Positions 2,920-59,521 of a stretch of 64,000 bases of DNA are shown piece after piece. Source of the stretch: an uncultured Erysipelotrichia bacterium (GTDB lineage Bacteria > Bacillota_I > Bacilli_A > CAYWJS01); the NCBI GenBank assembly GCA_964458855.1, contig CAYWJS010000003.1:1957-65956 (forward strand), written 5' to 3'. Each line of letters starts with the position of its first letter. Positions within the stretch are counted from its first letter, which is position 1. Under the pieces are notes generated by a model. It made no database searches. It saw only the letters and a program-made list of their open reading frames with translations, and had not been told where the DNA came from. Position numbers and translations under genes: made by a program.

Positions 2920-3946
2920 AATTCAAAATATATACTATATGCTTGCTTATGCTTTTCATGTCTTAAATGAAGAAGGCTATAAACAAGTAGCAACTGAAGA
3001 TTTCGAATATACTTCTGATTTATTTGCAGCAATTCTTTCCAAAGGTATTGCCAGCCAAATCAAAAGGGGATTAAGTAGGGAGTATATCAGCAAAACAGAA
3101 GCCGTTATTTCACCTACAGGTAAAATCAATGTCTCAGCCTCCATTGTACAGAATTCCATGCTTAAAAAGAAACTGGTCTGTGATTATGATGAGTTTACAG
3201 AAAACAGTTACTTGAATAAAATACTCAAAACCACTGCAATGCTTTTGATACGCTGTCCGGAAGTATCAACGCAGCATAAAAAAGCCTTAAGGAAAACAAT
3301 GCTTTATTTCAGTAATGTTGATGAAATAAATCCGCGCAGAATTCAATGGTCGAGTATCAGATACCATAGGAATAATGCCACCTATAAAATGCTGCTGAAT
3401 ATCTGCTATCTAGTTATCGAAGGTATGCTAATGACCGAGCAGGACGGTTCCCGAAAGTTGGCCCGCTATGTAGACGACCAGCGTATGCCCAGGCTTTATG
3501 AAAAATTTGTGTTGGAATATTATCGTAGGCATTATCCCCAGTTTAATGCTTCATCCACCATTATTGACTGGGATGTCGACGGTGGAGAAATAGAATATTT
3601 ACCTACTATGAAATCAGATATAACTCTTCGATATCGGGGCAAAACACTCATTATAGACACAAAATACTATAAGAAGACCATGCAGATAAACAGCTTGTTC
3701 AACAGCCGAACAATCCATTCTCACAATTTGTATCAGATATTTACTTATGTAAAAAACATGGATTTAGCTCGTTCGGGAAATATAAGCGGCCTTTTGCTTT
3801 ATGCCAAAACTGATGAAGATATTGTACCGGACAACGATTATATTATCGGCGGTAATCGTATTAGCGTTAAAACTTTGGACTTGAATACTGACTTTTCCAA
3901 CATATCAAAACAGTTGAACGCAATAGTAGAAAAGATGTTATTATAA
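2912..3946 (+). CDS. mcrC: McrC-like nuclease subunit (PD-(D/E)xK) of the McrBC system
   Basis: ORF track 2900..3946 starts at GTG; more likely ATG at 2912 with RBS GAGGT, overlapping mcrB stop (ATGATTAG); N-terminal IRIQNIYYMLAYAF typical of McrC; catalytic-like motif IIDTKYYKK. Confidence 0.8.
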   Translation: MIRIQNIYYMLAYAFHVLNEEGYKQVATEDFEYTSDLFAAILSKGIASQIKRGLSREYISKTEAVISPTGKINVSASIVQNSMLKKKLVCDYDEFTENSYLNKILKTTAMLLIRCPEVSTQHKKALRKTMLYFSNVDEINPRRIQWSSIRYHRNNATYKMLLNICYLVIEGMLMTEQDGSRKLARYVDDQRMPRLYEKFVLEYYRRHYPQFNASSTIIDWDVDGGEIEYLPTMKSDITLRYRGKTLIIDTKYYKKTMQINSLFNSRTIHSHNLYQIFTYVKNMDLARSGNISGLLLYAKTDEDIVPDNDYIIGGNRISVKTLDLNTDFSNISKQLNAIVEKMLL

Positions 3947-4002
3947 TCATGTGTTTTATCGCATAAAGATAATAAGCAGTAATACATCCATCCTGTATCC
4001 TC

Positions 4003-4025
4003 AACCCCCTATAAAAAAGGGGGTT
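4003..4025 (+). terminator. Hairpin downstream of mcrC (aaccccc-loop-gggggtt), putative intrinsic terminator
   Basis: Inverted repeat read directly; T-tract after the stem is weak. Confidence 0.35.
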
Positions 4026-4279
4026 ATCTAATCTGGTAACTCAACTATTAATTTTCAGGGTGGTTGATATGTTCCCGCAAACAATAAAAATAAGGGTTTC
4101 CTGACATTGCCTCATTCGGCAGATCGGCCTCGAGAAAAACTAAATGTCTGGAAACCCTTTATTTACAAGCATTTTTAACTTTCTATTTATCTACCCTTGT
4201 CATCAATACCACGCACTCAACATGGTATGTAAATTTATTTTCACCAATTTTTGTAATTATTACGCGTGATAAAATACAT

Positions 4280-35252: not shown

Positions 35253-35639
35253 TTATGATTTTGGTTTAAATAAAATTGCAACTAAAAAAGCAAAGAAGAT
35301 GGCACTGGTTATTCCTGCTGTTGTAAGGTCAAACATTTTCATAGCAATCCCAAAAAAACCATATTGATCAGTGTGATCTAAGGCACTATGAATCAAGGAG
35401 TGACCAAAACTTGTAATTGGAACAAGGGCTCCTCCACCACCAAACTCAACAATTCTGTCATAAATACCAAAAATATCAAGACCAGCACCTAAAACAACAA
35501 ATAAACTTGTAACATGTCCAGGCGTAAGAAGTGTATTTTCCAAAATTAATTGTCCAATAACACAAGTAATTCCAGCTACTAAAAAAGCATTTATATAATC
35601 CATTATATCGCCTCCAAACTTACTGCATGAGCAATACAA
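35253..35639 (-). CDS. spoVAEB: Stage V sporulation protein AEb (SpoVAC/SpoVAEb family membrane protein)
   Basis: ORF track 128 aa; likely start at internal Met (MDYINAFLVAG...) overlapping spoVAD stop; glycine-rich TM pattern. Confidence 0.75.
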   Translation of the reverse strand: MYCSCSKFGGDIMDYINAFLVAGITCVIGQLILENTLLTPGHVTSLFVVLGAGLDIFGIYDRIVEFGGGGALVPITSFGHSLIHSALDHTDQYGFFGIAMKMFDLTTAGITSAIFFAFLVAILFKPKS

Positions 35640-36610
35640 GGAATAGTTTCTTTTTGTTGAATCATAGTGGGACTAAAGAGAGCCCCTGTTGCAACTAAAA
35701 GAATTCTTTTTAATTTCCCTGTTTCTAATCTATTTTTCAAAAACCCAAAAGTAACTAAAGCAACACAAGCTGAACCACTACCCCCAGAAAATACTTCTTG
35801 GTTTTTCAAATCATAAAGCATTAGTCCACAATCATTATAATTTTTAGAAATATCCAATTTATATTCCTTTTTTAAATAATCAACCAAAACTTTACTTCCA
35901 ATATCACTTAAATCTCCTGTTACAATTAAATCATAATAATCAGGTGTTCTGTTTGTGTCTGTTAAATGTTGATTAATAGTATCTGCTGCAGCAGGTGCCA
36001 TAGCACCTCCTAAATCAAAGGGATTATTCATTCCCATATCAATTACTTTTCCTATTGTTACTGATTCAAGCTTAATTTTTGCTTTTTTCTTAGATAAAAG
36101 AACTGATGCAGCACCTGTTGCAGTAAAGGTTGCTGTCTGTGGTTTTTGTCCTCCATATTCATTAGGATAACGATATTGACGTTCAGCTGTAGAATTGTGG
36201 GATACTGTTGAACAAATTACATTATTTGCATTTTTACTATTAACTAAAATACCTCCAATAATTAAACTTTCCACGATATTTGCACAAGCTGCATAAACCC
36301 CTAGAAAAGGAAACCCAAATTCACGAGCAACATAATTAGAACTTACATTTTGGTTTAATAAATCCCCTGAGACAAAAAGATCAATATCAAATTTTGTAAG
36401 ATTAGTTTTACTTAAAACTTTAATAATACTTTCTTTTAATAATTTTCTTTCAGCAAGTTCATAGTTTTTCTCTTCGCAATATACATCACTAAAAGTTTTA
36501 TCAAAATATTTACCAAGTGGTCCCTCACTCTCCATTGGACCTGCTATAGTTGTAGCTTCATTTATATAAACACCATTTTTAAATGTTATTGTTTGCTCTC
36601 CTTGTTTCAT
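35603..36610 (-). CDS. spoVAD: Stage V sporulation protein AD (thiolase-like fold)
   Basis: 335 aa; position and overall pattern between spoVAC and spoVAEb. Confidence 0.85.
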   Translation of the reverse strand: MKQGEQTITFKNGVYINEATTIAGPMESEGPLGKYFDKTFSDVYCEEKNYELAERKLLKESIIKVLSKTNLTKFDIDLFVSGDLLNQNVSSNYVAREFGFPFLGVYAACANIVESLIIGGILVNSKNANNVICSTVSHNSTAERQYRYPNEYGGQKPQTATFTATGAASVLLSKKKAKIKLESVTIGKVIDMGMNNPFDLGGAMAPAAADTINQHLTDTNRTPDYYDLIVTGDLSDIGSKVLVDYLKKEYKLDISKNYNDCGLMLYDLKNQEVFSGGSGSACVALVTFGFLKNRLETGKLKRILLVATGALFSPTMIQQKETIPCIAHAVSLEAI

Positions 36611-36611
36611 T

Positions 36612-37067
36612 TTATCCTCCCATCACAAAGTATCTAATTATTCCAAAAATATATGCACTTACTACTCCATAAACAATTACTGTTCCTGCTAGCTTAAACA
36701 TATTTGTACCAATTCCGTAAACTAAACCTTCTCGTTTATGTTCTAAAGCTGCACTTGTCATAGAATTTGCAAACCCGGTAATGGGAATAATTGTTCCTGC
36801 TCCTGCCCACTGCCCAATTTTATCAAAAACACCAAAACCAGTTAAAAAACTTGCAAGAGCAATGAGAGTAACAATCATTGGAGTTGATGCTGCTTTTGCT
36901 GAAATATTTAAAACTTTGCTATAAAATTGAATAAGAAATTCAGCAAAAACACCAATTAAACCACCTACAATAAATGCTCTAAATACTTTTGTTCCCATCT
37001 TTTTGGGGGGATAAAAAGTTTTTACATAATCTTTATAACTTTCTTTTTTCACATAATCACTCCTCAA
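36612..37067 (-). CDS. spoVAC: Stage V sporulation protein AC
   Basis: ORF track starts at TTG 37067; likely start GTG 37052 after RBS GAGGAG; membrane protein of SpoVAC family. Confidence 0.8.
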   Translation of the reverse strand: MRSDYVKKESYKDYVKTFYPPKKMGTKVFRAFIVGGLIGVFAEFLIQFYSKVLNISAKAASTPMIVTLIALASFLTGFGVFDKIGQWAGAGTIIPITGFANSMTSAALEHKREGLVYGIGTNMFKLAGTVIVYGVVSAYIFGIIRYFVMGG

Positions 37068-37108
37068 TTGTTAGTATGTAAAAAATATCTTTAAAAATAC
37101 AAAAAAGA

Positions 37109-37819
37109 TTACACAATTTGTAATCTTTTTCGTAAATCATTTATTACTTTGTTTTCCATTCTTGATACTTTTACTTGTGAAATTCCGAGTCTTTTTGCAA
37201 CCTCAACCTGAGTTTGTTCTAAATTATATCTCATTTTAATTAATAATTTTTCAGTTGGGTCAAGCTTTTCTAATTCTTCAGTCAGCTCTAGTTTTTCAAA
37301 TTCACGTTTTGCACTCTCATCTAAAATTGTATTGTGAAGTGTATTAGTCTCATTATCATATGCTTGATCCATACTTAAAATATATTCTTTTGATTCAAGT
37401 GCATCCAAAATTTCACTCTTTGAAACTCCAAGATAATTAGTTATTTCATTTATAGTTGGAGTTCTCATATATTTTTGAGTAAGAATTTCTGTTGCTTCTT
37501 CTATTTTTTGAGCAATTGCAATAATATTTCTATTATATTTTACAAGTCTTTCATTTCTTAGGTATTGTCTTACTTCACCTAAAATTATAGGAAAAGCATA
37601 GGTTGTAAGTTTTGCTCCATGTGCTTTATCATAATTTTTTACAGCTTTAATAAACCCTATAACAGCAACTTGATACAAATCATCCTCATTATAACAGGTT
37701 CGAAACCTATTAATAATAGAATAAATTAAACCCTCATTACTTTTAATTAGCTCAGCTAAAGCTTCTTTTTCATTATTCTTAGCCCTCTCTACTAATTTAT
37801 CTACATTTTGTTTAGACAT
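37109..37819 (-). CDS. sigF: Sporulation sigma factor (sigma-F by operon position after spoIIAA-spoIIAB)
   Basis: 236 aa; sigma-70 regions 2 and 4; 8-nt overlap with spoIIAB. Confidence 0.8.
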   Translation of the reverse strand: MSKQNVDKLVERAKNNEKEALAELIKSNEGLIYSIINRFRTCYNEDDLYQVAVIGFIKAVKNYDKAHGAKLTTYAFPIILGEVRQYLRNERLVKYNRNIIAIAQKIEEATEILTQKYMRTPTINEITNYLGVSKSEILDALESKEYILSMDQAYDNETNTLHNTILDESAKREFEKLELTEELEKLDPTEKLLIKMRYNLEQTQVEVAKRLGISQVKVSRMENKVINDLRKRLQIV

Positions 37820-38252
37820 TTTCTAAAACCTCAGCTAATTTTAAATTTTTGGTAATTATAAGTTCTGTTCCTTTATTTGAACTATTTATTTTTAAATCAT
37901 CAGAAAAAGTTTCAATAATTGTAAATCCCATTCCTGACCTTTCTTTATCAGGCTTTGATGTATACATTGGTTGTCTTGCAAGTTCAATGTTTTCAATTCC
38001 ACAGCCTTCATCTTTTACAACGATTTTAACACTTTTATCTTTTATACTAACTTCTAAAATTACTTGTTTTTCAGGGTCTTCTTTATACCCATGAATAATT
38101 GCATTTGTTACAGCTTCTGAGATAATTGTTTTAATTTCTAAAATTTCATCAACAGTTGGATTTAAAGGGGCAATAAAACTACTAACAGCCATTCGCGCAA
38201 ATAATTCATTTTCACTTTTTGCATCAAAAATAATTTTTATTTTATTTTCCAT
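37812..38252 (-). CDS. spoIIAB: Anti-sigma F factor (GHKL-type Ser kinase)
   Basis: 146 aa; HATPase_c motifs (E...N...G.GLGF-like). Confidence 0.85.
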   Translation of the reverse strand: MENKIKIIFDAKSENELFARMAVSSFIAPLNPTVDEILEIKTIISEAVTNAIIHGYKEDPEKQVILEVSIKDKSVKIVVKDEGCGIENIELARQPMYTSKPDKERSGMGFTIIETFSDDLKINSSNKGTELIITKNLKLAEVLENV

Positions 38253-38253
38253 A

Positions 38254-38595
38254 TTAAACCCCCATTAACTCTATCGCCATAATTTCTGAATCTGCTTCAC
38301 AAACCAAATCAAACAAGCCACTCATAGAAAATAAATTTCTTAAATGCGCGTTTAAGCCACAAACAACAATTTTCCCGCCCCTACTTTCAACTTGTTTATA
38401 TCTACCCAAAATTACTCCAAGCCCACTGCTGTCCATAAAGTTAACTTCTCGAAAGTTTAAAACTAAAAACTTTATTCCGTACTCATCAATAAGTGGTGCA
38501 ACTTTTTTGCGAAATTTTCCAGCACTGTGATCATCTAATTCCCCGCGAATTCTTACAAATAAAATTCCCTTCCGAAACTCCATGTCTATATCCAT
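38254..38595 (-). CDS. spoIIAA: Anti-sigma F factor antagonist (STAS domain)
   Basis: 113 aa; phospho-serine motif FMDSSGLGVILGRY. Confidence 0.85.
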   Translation of the reverse strand: MDIDMEFRKGILFVRIRGELDDHSAGKFRKKVAPLIDEYGIKFLVLNFREVNFMDSSGLGVILGRYKQVESRGGKIVVCGLNAHLRNLFSMSGLFDLVCEADSEIMAIELMGV

Positions 38596-38701
38596 TTTAT
38601 TCCCCCTTCGGAAACTACTTTATCATAGTTTTTTTAAAATGGTTTATTTTCGACAAAAGAAGTTTTTTTGTATAAAAAAAATGGACTTTTAGTCCATTTT
38701 C

Positions 38702-39268
38702 TTATTTAAAAATATTCATTCTTGATATAATTTGCATTCTCTCTCTCAAGTCGGTGGCACCCTTAAAAAGCTTGTTAAGAGTATGGCCAATATAAATATT
38801 GAAAAATCCAACAATAATTATTGCTAACATAATTAGTAAGTTTGAAATACTTGTAATTAAATCAGGAATAAATATTAAAACTAAACCAATAACAAGAATA
38901 AATAAATTATAATATTTTTTGATATCACCCATAATTTTGTTAGTAGTAAAAAAACCTATTATTGATTTCAAAATTAACCAACTACCAATAATTTGTACTA
39001 ATAAATTAATATTATCTGTTCCAACTAAATACAACAAAGAAACAGCAATTAAAATAGAAATTATATTATCTGTTATTGTAACCCAAAGCTTTTCACTAAA
39101 ATCTTTCATTTTGTAATTAATTATTAATTTTTCAATTGCTTGACTCATAATTAATAAACTAATAAAAATGATAATAAATTGAGGTCCCATATCTGGATTG
39201 AAAAATAATCCATAAAGACCAAACGCAATAAATACAATTCCTTTTATTATTCTTAAAGTTCCGTTCAT
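38702..39268 (-). CDS. Small polytopic membrane protein (possibly HdeD/DUF308-like), hypothetical
   Basis: 188 aa, about six hydrophobic helices; immediately downstream of the HerA-like ATPase with a 2-nt gap. Confidence 0.45.
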   Translation of the reverse strand: MNGTLRIIKGIVFIAFGLYGLFFNPDMGPQFIIIFISLLIMSQAIEKLIINYKMKDFSEKLWVTITDNIISILIAVSLLYLVGTDNINLLVQIIGSWLILKSIIGFFTTNKIMGDIKKYYNLFILVIGLVLIFIPDLITSISNLLIMLAIIIVGFFNIYIGHTLNKLFKGATDLRERMQIISRMNIFK

Positions 39269-39270
39269 TT

Positions 39271-41109
39271 TTAACCTCCTATTATTTTATTTTGGTACCA
39301 AACATTTGCAATATCAGCACTTGAGCTATATGGGTCAGGTACTGGACGTTCAATATTAACCATAACTGGTAAATTTACCGCCGTTCCAAAAGCGATGCAA
39401 GTTCCAACTTGTAAGTAAGTTAGCTTATCAAGAATTGCTGTTGTAATATTTGGGACCATCTCTCGCATATAAGCTAAATCACGTGGGTGGTTTATTCTAA
39501 ATAATATGACATTTGAACATTGTGAAACAATTGTTTCACTTACTTCAGATGGGCGTTGTGAGACAAGTCCTAAGATAATTCCGTATTTTCTTCCTTCTTT
39601 AGAAATCCTTTCAAATATGTTATAACCTAAAATCTCAATATCAGTATCTTTTTGAGCATAGCGATGTGCTTCTTCCAAAATAATATGAATTGGAAATGAT
39701 GTTCTATCTTTTAATGATTTTGTATAATTAAAAAACATTTTTGAATATATTTTTGTAATAACTTTTGCAAACCTATCATCAACACCATGAATATTAAAGT
39801 TAATAATTTGCGCCTTCTTTTCTCCTTCAATTAAAACAAGGGATTTTATGTATTCCTCTAATGAATTATATTCAGTTTCTCCAAAATAGTCATTATATGA
39901 ACCATTAATTATTGAATCAAGTCGAACTTTTAAAACATTTGTGTAATCATAAACACTATCACTACTTAATTCACCTTCAGAAATAATTGCAAAATCTAAA
40001 GCTTTTTTGAAATCCTGCAAATCATATTTTACCAATTTATCAACATAATTTAAATCAAACTCTTCTTTAATAAATTGACTAAAAAACTTAGTAATTAACT
40101 CCATCTCTCTAAGTTTTCCATGTTCATCAATTAAAAAGCATTGTTTTAAAGTCCTAATGACACCTGGCTGTACAATTTTTGCTTCTAAATTAATTTCTTC
40201 TGTATTAAAATTAACTAATACTGAAAACACTCGATCACGTGCCGTTGAAGATGAACCTGAATTAGTTAAAATTGTCATTATTGCTTTTGCTAAAATGTGA
40301 TTTTTTAAATCATTTGCTTCCTTACTACCCAATTTAAAGACTTTTACTAGATTAAGTGCTTTTTCTAAGATTGGAAGTTGAATATGGCGGTCAACACCCA
40401 AAAGTAATGCCCAATCATCAACATCTAAAAGCCATACCGGAATTTTAATTAATCGATCAGTATCTGTTGTATCAGCAGTTGTATAAGATTTAAAATTTAA
40501 TTCTGGATTAATTTTTGAAAGCTCACTAAAAGCTTGGTGATATTCACCATAAGCATCAAAAATAAAGATATTAGCATTGTATGGTACACCCTCTGTTTTA
40601 GAAAATACATTTTGGAGAATTCTTGCTACTGCATTTGATTTACCACTACCTGTATTACCAAAAATAGCAAAGTGATTACTTAAAAAATCATTTACTCTTA
40701 AATATATTGGTAAACCAAAAATTGGTGATGTACCAAGTTCAAGTTGTTTTCTCTTGTCATATAAATTAGATCCTAAAATTAATTTCACTTCTGACTTTTT
40801 AGCAAACCTAACAGTTGCTGCAAAAGACGGATTAACAGATGTTCCAAATTTAAAACGGTCATCAGAAAACTCACCTACAAAGGAAGCATAGGCATAACTT
40901 TTATCTCCTTTTTTAAAAACATCTTGAATTTCACCAATAATTTGTGATTCTGCTTCTTCAAAAATAATAAAAACATTAATTAAACTTTTGGCACGATTTA
41001 AATCAAAATTTAACTCTATTTCAACAATTGAATCTTTAATTGTCAATATCTTCCCAATCATTAAAACCACTCCTATGGTAATTTTAACACTTTTATAAGG
41101 AAGATTCAA
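39271..41109 (-). CDS. HerA/FtsK-superfamily ATPase (DUF87-like) with N-terminal HAS-barrel-like domain
   Basis: 612 aa; Walker A FGNTGSGKSN, Walker B-like HIILEEAHRY, arginine-finger region LVSQRPSEV. Confidence 0.6.
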   Translation of the reverse strand: MNLPYKSVKITIGVVLMIGKILTIKDSIVEIELNFDLNRAKSLINVFIIFEEAESQIIGEIQDVFKKGDKSYAYASFVGEFSDDRFKFGTSVNPSFAATVRFAKKSEVKLILGSNLYDKRKQLELGTSPIFGLPIYLRVNDFLSNHFAIFGNTGSGKSNAVARILQNVFSKTEGVPYNANIFIFDAYGEYHQAFSELSKINPELNFKSYTTADTTDTDRLIKIPVWLLDVDDWALLLGVDRHIQLPILEKALNLVKVFKLGSKEANDLKNHILAKAIMTILTNSGSSSTARDRVFSVLVNFNTEEINLEAKIVQPGVIRTLKQCFLIDEHGKLREMELITKFFSQFIKEEFDLNYVDKLVKYDLQDFKKALDFAIISEGELSSDSVYDYTNVLKVRLDSIINGSYNDYFGETEYNSLEEYIKSLVLIEGEKKAQIINFNIHGVDDRFAKVITKIYSKMFFNYTKSLKDRTSFPIHIILEEAHRYAQKDTDIEILGYNIFERISKEGRKYGIILGLVSQRPSEVSETIVSQCSNVILFRINHPRDLAYMREMVPNITTAILDKLTYLQVGTCIAFGTAVNLPVMVNIERPVPDPYSSSADIANVWYQNKIIGG

Positions 41110-41135
41110 TTAATATCTTTAATATAAAATACCCT

Positions 41136-42293
41136 CTAAGAGGGTATTTTACCTGTTAACATTTCTACTAAGTAGCGGTTAAATAAATCCCAAATATTTG
41201 CCTTTTCTATTTTTTCTAAGGTAATTACTGGTACTGAAAGCAATACTTTATTATTATCTATAACATTTAAAGTACCTATTCTTGCTCCTGCTTTTAAAGG
41301 AACAGTAATTTTATCAATTTCTAATTTATAAGTTACATTTCTTTTTGGTTTTCCTTTTTGATTTAAAATGTATAAATCATCTTCTAGTACTGCTTTAACT
41401 GTTGTTTTTTTAGCTTTTGCAACAAAAATTTCCTTTAACACTTGCCCTTTTGATAAAGTTTTTTCAACTTCATATTGCTGAAAAGCATAATCTAAAAGTT
41501 TCGTTGTTTCATAATTACGATAACTTTTATCAGCAATTCCCATTACTACTGATATAACACGTAAGTTATTCCTTTTTGCAGTTGCAGTTAAACAATATTT
41601 TGATTTTGTTGTATGTCCGGTTTTTATCCCGTCTACCCCTTCATAGAAACGAACTAAGTTATTTGTATTTACAAGCCAAAATTTTTCATCTGTATCTTGT
41701 CTTAAATAATCTTCATAGATTGATGTGTATTTTAAAACCTCTGGATATTTTAATACTAATTCCCTTGCCATTACTGCAAGATCATAAGCAGATGAATAAT
41801 GGTTTTCTTCATCAAGACCTGATGAATTTACAAAGTTAGTATTTTTTAAACCTAATTCCTTTACTTTTTTATTCATTTGTTTAACAAATTCCTCTTCTGT
41901 TCCAGCTACTCGTTCTGCTAAAGCAACTGTGGCATCATTAGCACTAGCAATTGCAACTGCTTTAAATAAATCCTCAACACTCATTATTTCACCTGGTTCA
42001 AGGTAAATTTGACTTCCACCAAAAGAAGCAGCATTTGCACTTACCTGAATTTTTTCATCCCAAGTAAGTCCACCAGATTTAATATCTTCTAAAATTAACA
42101 TCATACTCATTATTTTTGTCATTGATGCTGGTGCAAGTCTTTTATGAGGATCCTTTTGGTAAAGAATTTCACCCGTTGTTACTTCCATTAAAATTGCACT
42201 TTCTGATTTTGGTGTTAAATCAAGCGTTTCTCCTTTTACTGGAAGCGGCATCATTAAAAGAATTAACACCAAAATAAACATTTTCCTTTTCAT
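41136..42293 (-). CDS. dacF: D-alanyl-D-alanine carboxypeptidase (S11, DacF-like)
   Basis: ORF track to 42344; likely start ATG 42293 after RBS GAGGTG giving signal peptide MKRKMFILVL; SMTK (SxxK), SAN, KTGHT motifs. Confidence 0.8.
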   Translation of the reverse strand: MKRKMFILVLILLMMPLPVKGETLDLTPKSESAILMEVTTGEILYQKDPHKRLAPASMTKIMSMMLILEDIKSGGLTWDEKIQVSANAASFGGSQIYLEPGEIMSVEDLFKAVAIASANDATVALAERVAGTEEEFVKQMNKKVKELGLKNTNFVNSSGLDEENHYSSAYDLAVMARELVLKYPEVLKYTSIYEDYLRQDTDEKFWLVNTNNLVRFYEGVDGIKTGHTTKSKYCLTATAKRNNLRVISVVMGIADKSYRNYETTKLLDYAFQQYEVEKTLSKGQVLKEIFVAKAKKTTVKAVLEDDLYILNQKGKPKRNVTYKLEIDKITVPLKAGARIGTLNVIDNNKVLLSVPVITLEKIEKANIWDLFNRYLVEMLTGKIPS

Positions 42294-42340: not shown

Positions 42341-44254
42341 TCATATTTTTCTACCATAAATATAGCCACCAATAATTATAACTCCAAAAAATAGTGACAA
42401 TTTAATCAATAAATGTTGTGAATTATTATTCTTTTCATTTTGAATGTTACTTTCTTTTAGGGTTTCTTTTTCTGTTGATTTCTTGCTTGTATTTTTAAGT
42501 AAGTTGTTTTCTCCAAGCGAAACAGTAACCGTTAAAGTGTCGTTTTTTCTTATTTCAGAGGGAAAGATATTAATTATTTTTCCTTTAGGAACTTTTTCTA
42601 AATATTTATAAAGAAGTTGAGTTTTAACATTTTTGTTTTGTAACCATTTTTCCAAATCAGAATATTTTTCAAATTTTGGGATTTTTATTTTTCCACTTGA
42701 AATGATTACTTCTAAAACATCATTTTTATTAAGAACTTTTTCATCATAAGAAAGCACTTTATTTTTCTCTTCTAAACTCTCTACTATTTTATATTTAACA
42801 TTTATTCCCTGTTTTTTTGCCCATGTATTTATTTCTTCTTTAGACCACTCATAAATATTCGGTATAGTAAAATTTCCTTTCGATAAAAGAACTTCAAAAG
42901 TTTCACCTGTATTTAGCTTTTGCTTATTAACGTCAATTACTGTATCTTTGGGTTCAATGCTTTCTATTATTTGAAATTTAGGATTAACCCTATTTTGAAA
43001 TGCCCAACTTTGAACTTCTTCTTTTTTCCAACCTATCATATTAGGAACATTTACTTCTTTTGGTAATACTTTTAAAGTTAAATTTATTTTAAGCTTATCA
43101 ATTAAAATACTTATTGGTTGAATTCCTATTTTTTTAGTATCAACTTCTTCTTTTATCTTAATACTATTTTTAGGATTTGTACTTTTAACATAATCATAAA
43201 TATTAAACTTATCTCCCCAATATATTTTTATTTCATTTTTAACTTCAATTTTATCTCTTGTACGAAAACGATAGAAAACTTTTTTAGTCGTCTCATCTTT
43301 TATATATGGAGCAAGCACATCATTTTCATAAGTGTCTAAATAAATTTTTTCAATATTGTAATACTTAAACATTTTTTCGCGCACACGATACTCTTTTTCA
43401 ATTTTTACTTCTCTTATTAATGATGATGTTACTTTCTCAAGGGATTCTTTCCATGGTTCCCATTTTGGATTTACTAAATTTTCTGCTTTTACTTCGTGAG
43501 TAAAACTATATTCTGAATAATAGTTGCTCATAAATTGATAGTTTCCTTTTATTTGGGCATAAATTCCAGAGTCTAAAGAGTTAGAATCTAAAAAATTAAG
43601 AGTGTATTTTTTAGTTGCAGTTCCTTTATCATATAAATAAATTTTTATTTTTATTTCATCAATATTATAAAATGCTTTCAAATCAATTAATATTGTGCCA
43701 TCATTTTCTAAAAAAGACATGTTTTCCTCTGCATTATTATTGTTTATAAAGTCTTTAAACTCAGGATTACATTTAGTACAACTTACACTATAATTTATTT
43801 TTTTATTATTTACATAAATATTTATTTCGGGAATTCTTAAAGCATTATATGAGCCTCGAACATCAGTAATATAAATATATCTTACTTTTTTCATGTTTCG
43901 ATATTTATAAACATTTCGAGTATCTATTTCATTAAACTCATTTTTTAAAATCTCTTTTTTTTGCCAAGAACTAAATTCTCCCCAAATAAAATCATCATCC
44001 AAACGATAAGGATATTCTTTTGGATTTTTCCCATTATAATAGTAATCATTTGTATAATTAATCTGTTCTTTATACCACTTCCATTTTATAATACTTTGAA
44101 CATTAACAAGCTCACTTGGTATTACTTTTTCTTCACTCCAATCACTAAAATTACTCCATTCGGTATAATAAACACTACTTTCTGCTTGTACTTTTATTGG
44201 TTTTAATAAAACAAATAATAGTAACAAAATTTTTAATACTTTTTTTACATTCAT
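42341..44254 (-). CDS. Secreted, C-terminally membrane-anchored protein with three PASTA-like repeats, hypothetical
   Basis: 637 aa; signal peptide ending VQA, W/Y/K-rich N-terminal region, three ~65-aa repeats with PASTA-like pattern, C-terminal TM LFFGVIIIGGYIYG. Confidence 0.5.
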   Translation of the reverse strand: MNVKKVLKILLLLFVLLKPIKVQAESSVYYTEWSNFSDWSEEKVIPSELVNVQSIIKWKWYKEQINYTNDYYYNGKNPKEYPYRLDDDFIWGEFSSWQKKEILKNEFNEIDTRNVYKYRNMKKVRYIYITDVRGSYNALRIPEINIYVNNKKINYSVSCTKCNPEFKDFINNNNAEENMSFLENDGTILIDLKAFYNIDEIKIKIYLYDKGTATKKYTLNFLDSNSLDSGIYAQIKGNYQFMSNYYSEYSFTHEVKAENLVNPKWEPWKESLEKVTSSLIREVKIEKEYRVREKMFKYYNIEKIYLDTYENDVLAPYIKDETTKKVFYRFRTRDKIEVKNEIKIYWGDKFNIYDYVKSTNPKNSIKIKEEVDTKKIGIQPISILIDKLKINLTLKVLPKEVNVPNMIGWKKEEVQSWAFQNRVNPKFQIIESIEPKDTVIDVNKQKLNTGETFEVLLSKGNFTIPNIYEWSKEEINTWAKKQGINVKYKIVESLEEKNKVLSYDEKVLNKNDVLEVIISSGKIKIPKFEKYSDLEKWLQNKNVKTQLLYKYLEKVPKGKIINIFPSEIRKNDTLTVTVSLGENNLLKNTSKKSTEKETLKESNIQNEKNNNSQHLLIKLSLFFGVIIIGGYIYGRKI

Positions 44255-51020: not shown

Positions 51021-53255
51021 TTATTCTTGTTCATTAAGTTTAACAAGAACTTCTCTTGGTTTAGACCCTCTTTTTGGTCCCACAATCCCCCGTGCTTCCA
51101 TTATATCTATTAATCTCGCTGCACGGTTATAACCTATTTTAAATCTTCGTTGAAGTCGAGAAGCACTAGCTTCTTGTTCTTCAATTACAAATTTTACTGC
51201 ATCTTCATAAAGTACATCTTCTTCATCAGCAAAATCTTTTTTTTCTTCAACTGATTCTATTTCAAGCTTCATCATATTCTCATCATACTCAACTTTTTGC
51301 TGTTTTTTTACATAATCTACTACTTGTTTGATTTCCATTTCTGAAACATAAGAACCTTGAATTCTAATAGGTACATTTTGCCCCATTGGAAGGAATAACA
51401 TATCTCCCTTACCAATTAATTTTTCAGCACCCGTCATATCAAGAATTGTTCTTGAATCAATACTACTTGAAACACTAAATGCAATACGTGATGGTATATT
51501 TGCTTTAATAAGTCCTGTAATAATATCAGCTGATGGACGTTGTGTAGCAGCAATCAAATGAATCCCTGCTGCTCGTGCCATTTGTGTAATCCGCATAATT
51601 GACTCTTCTACCTCTTTTGCTGCAACAAGCATCAAATCAGATAACTCATCAATAATTACAACAATAAATGGAAGTTTCTTTTCTCTGCCAACATAGGCAT
51701 TATAACCAGCAATATTTTTACATCCTATCTCCGCAAACAATTCATAGCGATGCTCCATTTCTTGAATAATTTTCTTAAGAGCAATGCTTGCTTTTTTAGG
51801 ATCAGTTACAACAGGCATTAAAAGATGAGGTAACCCATCGTAATAACTTAATTCAACAATTTTAGGATCGATTAATACAAATTTTAATTCATCCGGCCTT
51901 TTATGCATAAGTAGTGAAATAATTATTGAATTTATACAAATTGATTTTCCGCTTCCTGTAGCTCCCGCAACAAGAAGATGAGGCATTTTACTTAAATCTG
52001 CATGAATAGGTTGTCCTTTAATATCACGACCAAGACCAATTATTAGTTTATCTTTATCAAAATTTTCAATAGTCTCTAATACTTCTCGCAATGTTACAAT
52101 TTTATTTTTTTCGTTTGGAATTTCAATTCCAATTGTGTGTTTTCCAGGAATTGGTGCTTGAATTCTAACATCTTTTGCAGCAAGTGCAATTGCAATTTCT
52201 CGATTCAAGCTTACTACTCTGCTAACTTTAGTACCTGATGTAATTTCAAGCTCATATTGTGTTACAGTTGGTCCAACATTGGCAGCAACTACCCGTGAAT
52301 TAATACCAAAATCACGTAGTAGGCTTTCTAACTTTTCAACTACTTCTGTTATTGTTTTTTGATTAGCAATACTATCACCATCATCAACACCACGTTTTAA
52401 TATGTTTATTGGTGGTAACTGATAATCACCCATCTCTAAAAATTCATGTTTTTCTTCCAAGTCTTTTGGAGTTTCTGATATAGTTTCAGGTTGGATACTT
52501 TCTTCTTTTATTTCTACTTCTTCTTTTTGTTTCTTTAGCAAATCATCAATACTTGAAATAATGATTTGACCTTCACCTTTTTCAAATTCTTGTTCAGCTT
52601 CTTTTACCTTTTCTAAATTTTTCTTTCGTTTAGAAGATACAAAATTGTAAATTTTTTTACTTACTTTTATTATAAACTCCGTTAATGATTTACCAGTAAT
52701 CAACATAATAGCAAATATCATTAAAGCAAGGGTTACAATTTTTGCTCCTTCTTTACCTGTTGCAAAAGAAATAATTGATAAAAATATTGACCCAATCATT
52801 CCTCCCCCAACAGGAATTGTTCCAGGGCGACTTAAAGCAAGAGTTATTTGTTCCCATGTTCTACTAATTATATCAAGGTTTTCTTCACCATGATTAACAT
52901 GACTCCAAACTGTTATTGTGATAATTAAAAAATAAAAACCTATTAATTTTGAACTATAAAAATTTGGCCATGCTTTTTTTATCATTAAATAAATTCCCAA
53001 AACTATTGTTGAAAGTGGTACAATAACATACCACGAACCTACTAAAAATTGAGAAAATTTAGACAAAATATCTCCTAACCAACCAAATGGACCAAGAGCA
53101 ATTATACTAAGGAGAATTAAAATCATCCCATTTAGTTCAACATACAACTCCTTATTTTTTTTCTTCTCTTGTTTTCTTTTCTTCTTTTTAGACATAAGGA
53201 ACACCTCAATGTTATTATAACATAATAATAGATTTATTAATATGAAAAAACACAA
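51021..53255 (-). CDS. ftsK: DNA translocase FtsK/SpoIIIE
   Basis: 744 aa; N-terminal TM domain, Walker A GATGSGKS, C-terminal gamma winged helix. Confidence 0.9.
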   Translation of the reverse strand: MCFFILINLLLCYNNIEVFLMSKKKKRKQEKKKNKELYVELNGMILILLSIIALGPFGWLGDILSKFSQFLVGSWYVIVPLSTIVLGIYLMIKKAWPNFYSSKLIGFYFLIITITVWSHVNHGEENLDIISRTWEQITLALSRPGTIPVGGGMIGSIFLSIISFATGKEGAKIVTLALMIFAIMLITGKSLTEFIIKVSKKIYNFVSSKRKKNLEKVKEAEQEFEKGEGQIIISSIDDLLKKQKEEVEIKEESIQPETISETPKDLEEKHEFLEMGDYQLPPINILKRGVDDGDSIANQKTITEVVEKLESLLRDFGINSRVVAANVGPTVTQYELEITSGTKVSRVVSLNREIAIALAAKDVRIQAPIPGKHTIGIEIPNEKNKIVTLREVLETIENFDKDKLIIGLGRDIKGQPIHADLSKMPHLLVAGATGSGKSICINSIIISLLMHKRPDELKFVLIDPKIVELSYYDGLPHLLMPVVTDPKKASIALKKIIQEMEHRYELFAEIGCKNIAGYNAYVGREKKLPFIVVIIDELSDLMLVAAKEVEESIMRITQMARAAGIHLIAATQRPSADIITGLIKANIPSRIAFSVSSSIDSRTILDMTGAEKLIGKGDMLFLPMGQNVPIRIQGSYVSEMEIKQVVDYVKKQQKVEYDENMMKLEIESVEEKKDFADEEDVLYEDAVKFVIEEQEASASRLQRRFKIGYNRAARLIDIMEARGIVGPKRGSKPREVLVKLNEQE

Positions 53256-57039: not shown

Positions 57040-58076
57040 GATTTATTTTTTCCTTTAAGCAAATTTTTTGAAATTAAAAGTTCTGCAATTTGAACTGCAT
57101 TAAGTGCCGCGCCCTTTAACAAATTGTTAGAAACAACCCAAAGTGCGCAAGCATTATTATGCTTTAAATCCATACGAACACGTCCAACATAAACAAAAGG
57201 ACTATCTATAACATCTCTTGGTACTGGATAACTTTGTGTTTTTGGATTATCTATTAAAATTACTCCTTTGGAACTATTTATAATGCTTTTCAATTTAATT
57301 AAATCCATTGGTTTTTCAGTTTCAAGATAAATACTTTCAGAATGACCCACTTTTACAGGAACCCTTACACAAGTTGCACTAATTTCAATGCTTGGGTCTT
57401 TGAAAATTTTTTGTGTTTCATAAACCATTTTCATTTCTTCTTTGGTATAATTATTATCCAAAAATTCATCTACCTGAGGAATTACATTATAAGCAATTTT
57501 ATAGTGCTTAATGTTTGATTTAATTGGTAAAATTTTAGGTTCTGTATCACCTTCAATTTGTGATTCTAGTTCTAAAAGAGCATCTTTTCCTGCTCCACTA
57601 ACAGCTTGATAGGTAGAAACAATAATTTTTTTAATTTTATATTCTTTATGAATATTATTTAAAGCAACTACAAGTTGAATAGTAGAACAATTTGGATTTG
57701 CAATAATTCCTTGGTGGTAAACTAAATCTTCACCATTTACTTCTGGTACAATTAAAGGAACTCCTTTTTCCATGCGAAAAGCACTTGAATTATCAATTAC
57801 TAATACTCCTTTATTACGTGCATAATTTACATACTCTTTTGCAAGACTGCTTAATACCGCAAAAAAAAGAATATCAATTCCAGAAAACGAGTCTTTTGTA
57901 AGTTCTAAAACATCTATTTCTTGATCCTTAAATTTTATTTTTTTACCAAGACTTTTTTCACTTGCAAAAAGTTTTAACTTTCGTATTGGGATACTCGTTT
58001 TTTCTAAACACTTTATTATCATTTCTCCAACTAAACCTGTTGCACCAACAACTCCTATTACATAGTCTTTACTCAT
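57036..58076 (-). CDS. asd: Aspartate-semialdehyde dehydrogenase
   Basis: ORF track to 58130; likely start ATG 58076 (MSKDYVIGVVGATGLVG) after RBS AGGAG. Confidence 0.85.
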   Translation of the reverse strand: MSKDYVIGVVGATGLVGEMIIKCLEKTSIPIRKLKLFASEKSLGKKIKFKDQEIDVLELTKDSFSGIDILFFAVLSSLAKEYVNYARNKGVLVIDNSSAFRMEKGVPLIVPEVNGEDLVYHQGIIANPNCSTIQLVVALNNIHKEYKIKKIIVSTYQAVSGAGKDALLELESQIEGDTEPKILPIKSNIKHYKIAYNVIPQVDEFLDNNYTKEEMKMVYETQKIFKDPSIEISATCVRVPVKVGHSESIYLETEKPMDLIKLKSIINSSKGVILIDNPKTQSYPVPRDVIDSPFVYVGRVRMDLKHNNACALWVVSNNLLKGAALNAVQIAELLISKNLLKGKNKS

Positions 58077-58656
58077 TTTTAAACTCCTGTAAAACCGGTT
58101 GCAGTTGGCGTCCTTGTAATGCTTCTTCAATCGTTGGAATAATTAAGTCAAAATGCGATGATAAAGATTGTGGTTTAGCTTTAAAGTTGTCTTGCCCAAA
58201 AGGAACAAGATAAATATTTTTTCTATTTAGAAGTTCCATAATATTTACACCATTTGCACCAAGTCCATCATTAGTAGTAAATGCTATAACAACCGGCGAG
58301 TTATTTCTAAGGGTTGCTTTTGCTGCCATAATAACGGCACTATCAGTATGACCATGTAAAAGTTTACTAAGAGTGTTTCCCGTTGCAGGTGCAATCACAA
58401 GAATATCAAGAGGTTCAATAGAACCAAATTTTTCTGCTTCAACTATTGTACTTACTACTTCTTTTTTAGTTATTTCTTCAAGTTTTTTTACAACTTCTAT
58501 CGCTTTTTTAAATCTTGTATCGGTAGTTACTACTCTTTCACTTGCAATTGGTACTATTTCATGACCCAAATCTACTAATTTTTGAATCTCATCATAAACC
58601 TTATCAAAAGAACAATGAGATGCAGTTAGAGCAAATCCAATTTTAGACACTTTCAT
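58069..58656 (-). CDS. dpaB: Dipicolinate synthase subunit B (flavoprotein)
   Basis: ORF track starts at TTG 58680; likely start ATG 58656 after RBS GAGGGGAG; flavoprotein pattern KIGFALTASHCS. Confidence 0.8.
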   Translation of the reverse strand: MKVSKIGFALTASHCSFDKVYDEIQKLVDLGHEIVPIASERVVTTDTRFKKAIEVVKKLEEITKKEVVSTIVEAEKFGSIEPLDILVIAPATGNTLSKLLHGHTDSAVIMAAKATLRNNSPVVIAFTTNDGLGANGVNIMELLNRKNIYLVPFGQDNFKAKPQSLSSHFDLIIPTIEEALQGRQLQPVLQEFKNE

Positions 58657-59521
58657 CACTCCCCTCACTAATAATTTCAAGTATTGCTTCCGCTAAAATT
58701 TTCCCTGCTGTTTTAGGAGCAACAAGTCCAGGTATTCCTAATACTAAATCAGCTTTTAAACCGCGTTTTTTGGCATACTCAAAATCTACTCCTCCTGGTT
58801 TGCTTGAAATATCTAAAATAAATGTATTAACATTTACCTCATCTAAAATATCTCGCGTTATAACAAGAGCTGGTACTGTATTAATAATAATATTTGCATC
58901 AGAAATTTTTGCTTTTACTTTCTCAATATATAGAGGATTCATTTTTAATTCTTTAACGCGAGCATAATTTTTTTTGCTTCTAACTACTACTGTTACATTA
59001 GCACCTAAATTTTTTAAGGTTCTTGCTAAAGTTTCCCCAACACGACCAAACCCAAAAACATAAATATTAGAACCAAAAATTGTGTAATCTGTATTTTCAA
59101 CAAGCATCATAATAACGCCTTCTACTGTTGGAATTGAATTATAAATTGCAACATCATCACGCTCCATTAAAATATAAGCATCACGGTTTGCAAATTCTAA
59201 CATTTCTTCTAATCTTTTGGTTTTAATTCCAGTAAATATTTTTACATTTTCTTTTGTATTACTAAAAAAATTAAGGGGTAATATAAAGTCTTCATTAGAA
59301 AATAAAGTCCTAACTTTTCCTTCATCTGAAACCCCGTTAACTGGTAAAATTATTACATCATAAATATTAATATTTAACTCTTTTAAACTAACTTTTCTTG
59401 CCTCAACAAATGATTGCATAAGTTGATGGAATCCTAAAAGATGAATATTTGCTTTTTTTTCTTTGAAAATTCTAATCATTTCCAGTTGTCTTTGGTCGCC
59501 ACCAACAAATAAAACATTCAT
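58643..59521 (-). CDS. dpaA: Dipicolinate synthase subunit A
   Basis: 292 aa; Rossmann-like GFGRVG motif; immediately upstream of dpaB. Confidence 0.8.
   Translation of the reverse strand: MNVLFVGGDQRQLEMIRIFKEKKANIHLLGFHQLMQSFVEARKVSLKELNINIYDVIILPVNGVSDEGKVRTLFSNEDFILPLNFFSNTKENVKIFTGIKTKRLEEMLEFANRDAYILMERDDVAIYNSIPTVEGVIMMLVENTDYTIFGSNIYVFGFGRVGETLARTLKNLGANVTVVVRSKKNYARVKELKMNPLYIEKVKAKISDANIIINTVPALVITRDILDEVNVNTFILDISSKPGGVDFEYAKKRGLKADLVLGIPGLVAPKTAGKILAEAILEIISEGSDESV

Follow-up and report, generated by a model that had tools for sequence, protein, structure and literature searches.

A 64,000-nucleotide stretch of DNA from an uncultured Erysipelotrichia bacterium (NCBI GenBank assembly GCA_964458855.1, contig CAYWJS010000003.1, positions 1,957 to 65,956), hereafter called the window, encodes on its minus strand a HerA-like ATPase and, after a gap of 2 nucleotides (nt) between the herA stop codon and the next ATG, a membrane protein of 188 amino acids (aa). 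The gene upstream of the pair encodes an S11 D-Ala-D-Ala carboxypeptidase and is dacF-like (4.4e-81), and downstream of the pair lie spoIIAA (TIGR02886, above cut-off), spoIIAB, sigF, spoVAC/D/E and scpA/B. A dacF gene immediately 5' of spoIIAA is the classic Bacillus gene order, and an initial annotation of the locus had correctly placed the pair between these two genes. It had also described the pair as inserted there and had proposed that it forms a membrane-associated translocation or defence module, or a lineage-specific sporulation factor; these proposals were not borne out by the comparisons reported here. The features of the locus are listed in Table 1.

Table 1. Features of the herA transcription unit, with positions in the window
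Feature	Position	Strand	Remarks
herA-like gene	39271..41061	(-)	596 aa; reading frame extends to TTG 41109, likely start ATG 41061
188-aa membrane-protein gene	38702..39268	(-)	six transmembrane helices (predicted), putatively DUF308/HdeD-like, species-specific
Promoter-like site, sigma-A type	41081..41109	(-)	TTGAAT-17-(TGt)TAAAAT, extended -10; consensus match only
Ribosome-binding site AGGAG	41070..41074	(-)	8 nt 5' of ATG 41061, read from sequence
13-bp hairpin over dacF stop codon, likely terminator	41124..41152	(-)	RNA fold
Intrinsic terminator, 13-bp stem + U8	38667..38703	(-)	terminator scan, RNA fold, inverted repeat

The HerA ATPase, the membrane protein and their transcription unit

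The longest open reading frame (ORF) of the herA gene has 612 codons from a TTG (39271..41109, minus strand), which is the length first annotated. The true start is almost certainly ATG 41061, because a ribosome-binding site lies 8 nt ahead of it, all aligned homologues begin at the equivalent methionine, and every gene call for herA on further contigs of this species yields a protein of 596 aa.

The assignment of this protein to the HerA/FtsK superfamily was confirmed by profile and structure searches. It matched the Pfam DUF87/HerA central domain (PF01935; 8.6e-27, 95 bits, cut-off 23.2) and the PADLOC HerA model PDLC04102 (6.3e-121, residues 44-608), and a phmmer search of the PDB matched ten solved HerA sequences, with 9c1m as the best (3e-39). 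Scores with the NCBIfam HerA equivalogs (1e-33 to 1e-52, 114-177 bits) were far below the cut-offs of 800-970 bits, and the window HerA is thus no equivalog of a named HerA. An AlphaFold2 (AF2) model of the monomer, built on 22 homologues (pLDDT 73, pTM 0.69), shows beta strands at residues 3-122 and helices at 214-410, together with a core of mixed alpha/beta structure. Foldseek aligned the model over its full length to HerA structures with TM-scores of 0.55-0.72; the best match was 8yhx (1.4e-29, TM 0.72), followed by 8xau, HerA-DUF4297, SIR2-HerA, HerA-NurA and Sulfolobus HerA.

The predicted fold has the three-part HerA architecture of an N-terminal HAS/beta-barrel, as had been suspected from the N-terminal sequence, a RecA-like core and an inserted helical bundle, and the HerA domain scheme of PMC11472057 maps onto the window protein. 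The domains comprise the beta-barrel (~1-112), the RecA-like core (113-225 and 416-575), the alpha-helical bundle (226-415) and a conserved C-terminal tail. The three motifs quoted in the initial annotation are present, namely Walker A GNTGSGKSN (K141), Walker B (HI)ILEEAHRY (E463/E464) and SQRP (Q502-R503-P504), and in 22 clade sequences K141, E463/E464 and Q502-R503-P504 do not vary. Profiles, motifs and model together mark the 596-aa protein as a genuine ring ATPase of the HerA family. One strain variant of the species (P0131) carries the substitution R503H in the clade-invariant arginine of the QRP motif. Matches to FtsK, TrwB, VirB4, TraB, EccC and CedD were below threshold or confined to the P-loop.

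Together with the membrane-protein gene, herA forms a self-contained bicistronic unit, as delimited by a predicted promoter and two predicted terminator hairpins. The sigma-A-type promoter ends 19 nt 5' of the ATG (promoter scan and sequence). The hairpin at the dacF stop codon (-15.9 kcal/mol, z -4.6, 0/200 shuffles equally stable) likely separates dacF from herA transcriptionally, and the terminator after the membrane gene (-12.8 kcal/mol, z -5.6, RNA fold) closes the unit ahead of the spoIIA promoter region. The overall G+C content of both genes and that of their third codon positions (GC3) are in line with those of the neighbouring genes. No marks of insertion (flanking direct repeats, recombinase or integrase, tRNA, shift in G+C) were found at the locus, nor was any structured RNA detected in the region at E <= 0.1. 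No other defence genes and no mobile-element genes lie in the part of the window around the pair, which is surrounded by core genes for sporulation and the cell wall.

A perfect Spo0A-box-like sequence, TTTGTCGAAA (38648-38657, minus strand), is present in the 106 nt that separate spoIIAA from the terminator of the membrane gene, in keeping with a spoIIA promoter that is intact and under its own regulation. An identical sequence of 16 nt, ATTTTAACACTTTTAT, occurs as a direct repeat at 38023-38038 and 41081-41096; one copy makes up the promoter spacer and extended -10 ahead of herA, and the other lies within spoIIAB. In a stretch of this length (4.8 kb), chance alone would yield about 0.1 such repeats.

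The ORF of the 188-aa membrane protein, recorded in the initial annotation as polytopic, is a real gene and not a chance ORF, as follows from its positive in-frame coding score, its ribosome-binding site (AGGAGG), six predicted hydrophobic helices whose charged loops fit the positive-inside rule (N-in/C-in), and its recurrence, identical in form and in an unvarying gene arrangement, on 23 or more contigs of the species that come from different samples. A run of 188 stop-free codons at 23% G+C is very unlikely to occur by chance. The C-terminus of the protein (residues 167-188) is a basic amphipathic helix.

Homologues of the membrane protein were sought at three levels. A word-indexed search of 5.8 billion clustered proteins found none but the protein itself, an exhaustive scan of 1.84 billion representative proteins with HMMER found only its own fragment, and no homologue emerged when all ORFs of the related loci described below were searched with phmmer --max; a single borderline match in locus L050 was rejected as a soluble kinase-like protein. 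There was no signal of an internal repeat and no match in PADLOC or NCBIfam, and the AF2 model from the single sequence was poor (pTM 0.32). The profile searches gave only a marginal match over one repeat to Pfam DUF308 (1.4e-6, 28.9 bits, cut-off 25, model positions 1-72 of 73), which none of nine reversed or segment-shuffled controls reproduced. The protein is therefore best described as a putative, extremely diverged DUF308/HdeD-like protein. It resembles this family in scoring above the Pfam gathering threshold over one full repeat and in its roughly six transmembrane (TM) helices, which is also the number in HdeD, but differs in having only one detectable repeat and no sequence homologues. 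No paper on a pairing of DUF308 proteins with HerA was found in the searched literature. The membrane protein is confined to one species, where it is a lineage-specific add-on and not a conserved partner.

The HerA clade in gut Bacilli

The closest relatives of the window HerA are a flat set of proteins of ~590 aa with 48-54% identity that are annotated as DUF87 or ATP-binding protein; the window HerA is ~53% identical to this clade. The hosts are gut metagenome-assembled genomes (MAGs) labelled Bacilli, Tenericutes or Mycoplasmatota, including complete chromosomes of 1.2-1.5 Mb, and a pattern scan detected the clade in at least 580 species representatives. The initial annotation had stated that it would be contradicted if the homologues proved to be a housekeeping ATPase already well characterised and with a known partner. 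This was not the outcome: the clade is uncharacterised, no paper on it was found in the searched literature, and an effector-less HerA clade related to SIR2-HerA motors appears to be undescribed there.

The gene neighbourhoods of 80 related herA loci were compared. No conserved gene, homologous or analogous to the membrane ORF, was present downstream of herA in these loci, where genes for PFOR, FeoB, LepA, a radical-SAM enzyme, LtaS-like proteins, surface proteins and others were found, and the pairing of herA with this membrane-protein gene occurred only in the species of the window. Upstream, the neighbourhood is more regular: yqeH is near herA in 49 loci, directly at position -1 in 42 of them, and yqeG lies upstream in 46. 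A dacF-like carboxypeptidase gene, 52% identical in product to that of the window, was located three to five genes 5' of herA (positions -3 to -5) in 23 of the 80 loci, and the proximity of dac and herA consequently looks old. With no repeats, recombinase, tRNA or compositional shift at the locus, the view that the pair had been inserted between dacF and spoIIAA was not upheld. The spoIIA operon was near herA in none of the 80 loci.

Prepilin-type (N_methyl) genes were found near herA in 17 of the 80 relatives (e.g. L008, L027, L028, L034, L037, L043), mostly upstream of dac in a block with the order rpsP-KH-pilin-pilin-dac-(X, MFS-like)-yqeG-yqeH-herA and usually five to six genes from herA. 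In L009 (3240-7776) two herA paralogues flank two pilin genes, and in L001, L018, L047 and L086 a pilin-like or N-terminally anchored surface protein begins a few nt past the herA stop codon.

A -10 box is present 20-45 nt 5' of the herA start in most of 77 related loci, and consensus sequences for sigma-F, -G, -E, -K or -H are not enriched upstream of herA in this set. The herA promoter of the window, of sigma-A type with an extended -10, stands at a position that is conserved across the clade, and an FtsK/SpoIIIE complete with its alpha, motor and gamma domains is encoded in the window at 51021-53255; the proposal that the pair is a lineage-specific sporulation factor was thus not sustained.

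Sequence conservation was compared among 44 species with the arrangement yqeG-yqeH-herA (loci among L008-L087). Mean pairwise identity was 0.70 for HerA, 0.58 for YqeG and 0.49 for YqeH, and the divergence of HerA was correlated with that of YqeH (r 0.75, Mantel p 0.001) about as YqeH was with YqeG (r 0.69). The identity between window and clade is similar for HerA (53%), FtsK (51%), DacF (52%) and Pdp (52%). Since HerA identity exceeds that of YqeH and YqeG, follows YqeH in its divergence and is at the level of FtsK, DacF and Pdp, the clade is, as far as these sequences can tell, chromosomal, vertically inherited and under strong purifying selection, and not a shuffled defence gene. For a protein with defence components as its nearest characterised relatives, a conservation above that of the YqeH GTPase and the YqeG phosphatase is unusual. 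Apart from partial terminase-like matches, neither IMG/VR nor the phage records contain the clade, and plasmid-borne HerAs are only relatives more distant than the clade; those of plasmids from outside the Firmicutes align only over the C-terminal ATPase half.

Comparison with known HerA systems and alternative functions

Among characterised proteins, the window HerA is closest to the motors of SIR2-HerA (Nezha) antiphage systems, above all those on Firmicute plasmids. It has full-length homology, at 33-35% identity, to the HerAs of Listeria (pLM), Enterococcus and Lactobacillus kefiranofaciens plasmids, and its only full-length plasmid homologues are HerAs whose start overlaps a SIR2 gene. 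PDLC04102 is the top PADLOC model for both groups (~515 bits for the SIR2-linked HerAs, 403 for the window HerA and ~400 for its clade), which together with the plasmid homologues places the window HerA in the SIR2-associated HerA subfamily. The four-part fold, Walker A, Walker B and QRP motifs of the SIR2-HerA structures (8wiv/8wld, 8j4u, 8su9) are common to the window protein, as is a conserved C-terminal tail, P.P..S..DI..W.

The differences concern gene context and the N-terminal domain. The window HerA has no SIR2 gene; the gene upstream is dacF here and yqeH in the relatives. The known systems are located on plasmids or in defence islands, whereas the clade of the window is chromosomal and vertical, with a housekeeping context. 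The window HerA lacks the long arm found at the C-terminus of the Paenibacillus HerA (696 aa). Identity to the SIR2-linked HerAs amounts to 39-44% in the ATPase core and 32-35% in the helical bundle, and is lowest in the beta-barrel (24%), the most diverged domain, which lacks three insertions (~9, 15 and 10 aa) of the SIR2-linked proteins. In the Paenibacillus SIR2-HerA complex, the alpha1 helix of SIR2 is held between two HerA beta-barrels, and mutations in the beta-barrel disrupt the complex (PMC11472057). A search for SIR2 by tblastn and with a hidden Markov model (HMM) built from three plasmid SIR2 proteins returned nothing significant in the window or in ~100 clade loci. Weak matches suggestive of a hidden SIR2 upstream of herA in L015, L079 and L084 proved to be the zinc-ribbon GTPase YqeH.

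This kinship raises the possibility of a two-gene abortive infection system, in which HerA would sense phage DNA ends or proteins and activate the six-helix protein as a membrane-disrupting effector, so that the NADase of a SIR2-HerA-like system would have been exchanged for a TM effector. Such a system would be consistent with nearest annotated relatives in SIR2-HerA operons and a defence HerA of PADLOC as the best profile, with the tight coupling of the two genes in one operon, and with a membrane protein that is fast-evolving or orphan, as effectors often are; TM effectors are often swapped in among other defence families. We nevertheless consider it unlikely. The membrane gene lies downstream of herA, whereas SIR2 genes lie upstream and overlap it, and the membrane protein has no PADLOC match and no sensor domain beyond a 22-aa tail. 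There is no conserved partner in the sister clade of more than 580 species, and HerA is inherited vertically and is more conserved than its housekeeping neighbours. The genes around it belong to core sporulation and cell-wall functions, with no defence or mobile-element genes and no shift in composition, and collections of plasmids, phages and viruses contain no member of the clade. With an ORFan as its membrane component and no conserved downstream gene in 80 loci, the proposal that the pair forms a dedicated membrane-associated translocation or defence module is not supported.

HerA systems with other partners resemble the window protein in fold and hexameric-ATPase motifs; this applies to DUF4297-HerA (9c1m, 8ziq) and to HerA-NurA (4d2i, 9x1m), with Foldseek values of 1e-23 to 1e-27 and phmmer values of 3e-39 to 1e-24. 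They differ from it in that neither the window nor the relatives have an adjacent DUF4297 or NurA gene, and their sequence similarity is below that of the SIR2-linked subfamily. HerA could still be the motor half of an end-resection machine of the HerA-NurA type, or of another repair machine, whose nuclease is encoded elsewhere and with which the membrane gene merely shares a transcript. The fold matches to the HerA-NurA structures 9x1m and 4d2i, the scores with the NCBIfam models for double-strand-break repair HerAs (1e-33 to 1e-38), the housekeeping-like conservation with vertical inheritance and the lack of a conserved neighbour agree with such a function. It is rather improbable all the same: the similarity to archaeal repair HerAs is weaker than that to defence HerAs, a NurA-like gene occurs in none of the ~100 clade loci nor in the window, neighbour clustering of the 80 loci showed no recurrent nuclease-like neighbour of herA, and at least one relative (L006) has a gene for an AddB-like nuclease, so that a canonical end-resection enzyme may already exist.

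The membrane protein might, on the other hand, anchor the HerA hexamer in a split DNA pump of the FtsK/SpoIIIE or Ced type that serves sporulation, competence or DNA exchange. HerA and FtsK/SpoIIIE belong to the same ASCE/RecA-type superfamily of pumping ATPases, and the window HerA has weak P-loop matches to the FtsK, TrwB, VirB4 and CedD models. The unit combines a motor gene with that of a polytopic neighbour with a basic cytoplasmic tail and adjoins spoIIA and other sporulation genes, and prepilin-type genes accompany herA in some relatives, with the paralogues in L009 around two pilins. There is also a precedent in the Streptomyces cmdABCDEF genes, in which a superfamily ATPase and membrane proteins affect sporulation and chromosome segregation (PMC2782261); CmdB itself is VirB4-like and not HerA proper, and was rejected as a HerA precedent.

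We nonetheless regard a pump of this kind as very improbable. The FtsK, TrwB, VirB4 and CedD scores are far under the cut-offs or cover only the P-loop, as with Pfam FtsK_SpoIIIE (18.8 bits against a cut-off of 24, residues 137-172); the window HerA has no fused TM, alpha or gamma domains, and a complete FtsK/SpoIIIE is already encoded in the window. None of the relatives has the membrane partner, the promoter resembles those of sigma-A and shows no consensus for a sporulation sigma factor, terminators isolate the unit from dacF and spoIIA, and no relative has spoIIA near herA. The pilin genes of the relatives usually lie five to six genes off, beyond dac in a syntenic block, and are not coupled to herA. 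Each of the three alternatives is in conflict with at least one result of the comparative analysis.

Proposed role of the HerA clade

We lean, with slightly more confidence than doubt, towards a chromosomal HerA without an effector, that is, a vegetative, ATP-driven DNA-end motor with a role in housekeeping or surveillance, to which a species-specific DUF308-like protein has been added at a rearranged dac...herA locus. Expressed vegetatively from its own sigma-A promoter, HerA would assemble as a hexamer, load on ends or nicks of DNA and use ATP to translocate or unwind DNA through its central channel, and it would serve DNA maintenance or surveillance rather than act as the sensor of a suicide effector. 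It may possess an intrinsic nicking activity, as reported for a HerA without Sir2: in a 2026 study, one E. coli HerA on its own was a nickase that depended on D218, 30 residues past the Walker-A lysine, and was repressed by Sir2 (PMC13434337). The window HerA has a clade-invariant Asp at K141+28 (D169, in IFDAYGEY), whose correspondence to D218 is suggestive only. With its basic cytoplasmic tail, the membrane protein may tether HerA or modulate it, and the placement of the pair between dacF and spoIIAA would reflect a local rearrangement of an old dac...herA neighbourhood and not a recent insertion.

Several points speak against this interpretation. Every one of the closest characterised relatives is a defence protein, and the genome could encode an effector at another locus. 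The 2-nt gap and the shared promoter and terminator speak for a functional link of the membrane protein to HerA in this species. In E. coli's type III Sir2-HerA system, HerA alone had no ATPase or helicase activity (PMC13434337), and an autonomous motor activity is accordingly not guaranteed. When metagenome loci were fetched with YqeH as seed (L103-L182), herA was downstream of yqeH in only 28 of 66 informative loci; in the others the slot was occupied by hypothetical or membrane-anchored proteins, frr, hisS or a murF-like gene, as in L124 (yqeH, 266-aa hypothetical, LtaS) compared with L157 (yqeH, herA, LtaS). The site downstream of yqeH is a synteny breakpoint and herA has no fixed locus; given this proportion and the heterogeneous replacements, a universal ('core') presence of herA is unproven. 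Finally, among 12 strain contigs of the nearly clonal population of the species (0-8 variable sites per gene), herA had eight non-synonymous and no synonymous changes, which is no signature of strong constraint in this species, although the changes are too few to be significant; spoIIAA, spoIIAB and sigF had no differences across the same strains.

A more far-reaching version, to which we attach little credence, is that the clade represents a domesticated or ancestral effector-free SIR2-HerA motor with an important cellular role in DNA handling, which in this species has recruited a new six-helix protein to give a membrane-tethered HerA next to the sigma-F operon. If true, such a machine would be a previously undescribed HerA architecture.

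Other genes of the window and of its relatives were noted in passing. Directly upstream of dacF, an ORF of 637 aa (42341-44254, minus strand) ends with a stop codon that overlaps the longest dacF ORF by 4 nt and does not overlap the 385-aa dacF gene call. Its product has a signal or TM segment at the N-terminus, a TM segment at the C-terminus and two PASTA repeats close to the latter end; having no NCBIfam match and no homologue among the 80 related loci, it is another lineage-specific envelope protein. In relative L001, the region downstream of RNase J (3469-4200) contains an ORF of 132 aa with a Hint/intein-splicing domain and, on the opposite strand, an ORF with a TSCPD domain; the ORF in this region varies in length or is truncated in the sister contigs L002 and L003. 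Sporulation genes in the window (35253-38595 and 58069-59521) comprise spoIIAA/AB/sigF, spoVAC/D/E and dpaA/dpaB, and cotE is present in L001 (12651-13184). With this sporulation toolkit in MAGs labelled Tenericutes or Mycoplasmatota, and chromosomes of 1.2-1.5 Mb in the relatives, these organisms appear to be endospore formers with very small genomes.

The pairing of HerA with this membrane protein is a curiosity of one species and gives little leverage by itself. The more interesting by-product of this study is the large, strongly conserved and effector-less HerA clade related to SIR2-HerA motors. Bacterial HerA has been studied almost only as the sensor-motor of SIR2-HerA and DUF4297-HerA abortive infection systems, or as the partner of NurA, and the locus described here points to an uncharacterised clade that has an intact motor and no linked effector and is present in 580 or more species of uncultured Bacilli from the gut. 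If the proposed role is correct, a motor of the defence type would serve a cellular function in these bacteria, or evolution would have proceeded in the reverse direction, and the clade would show what HerA does on its own.

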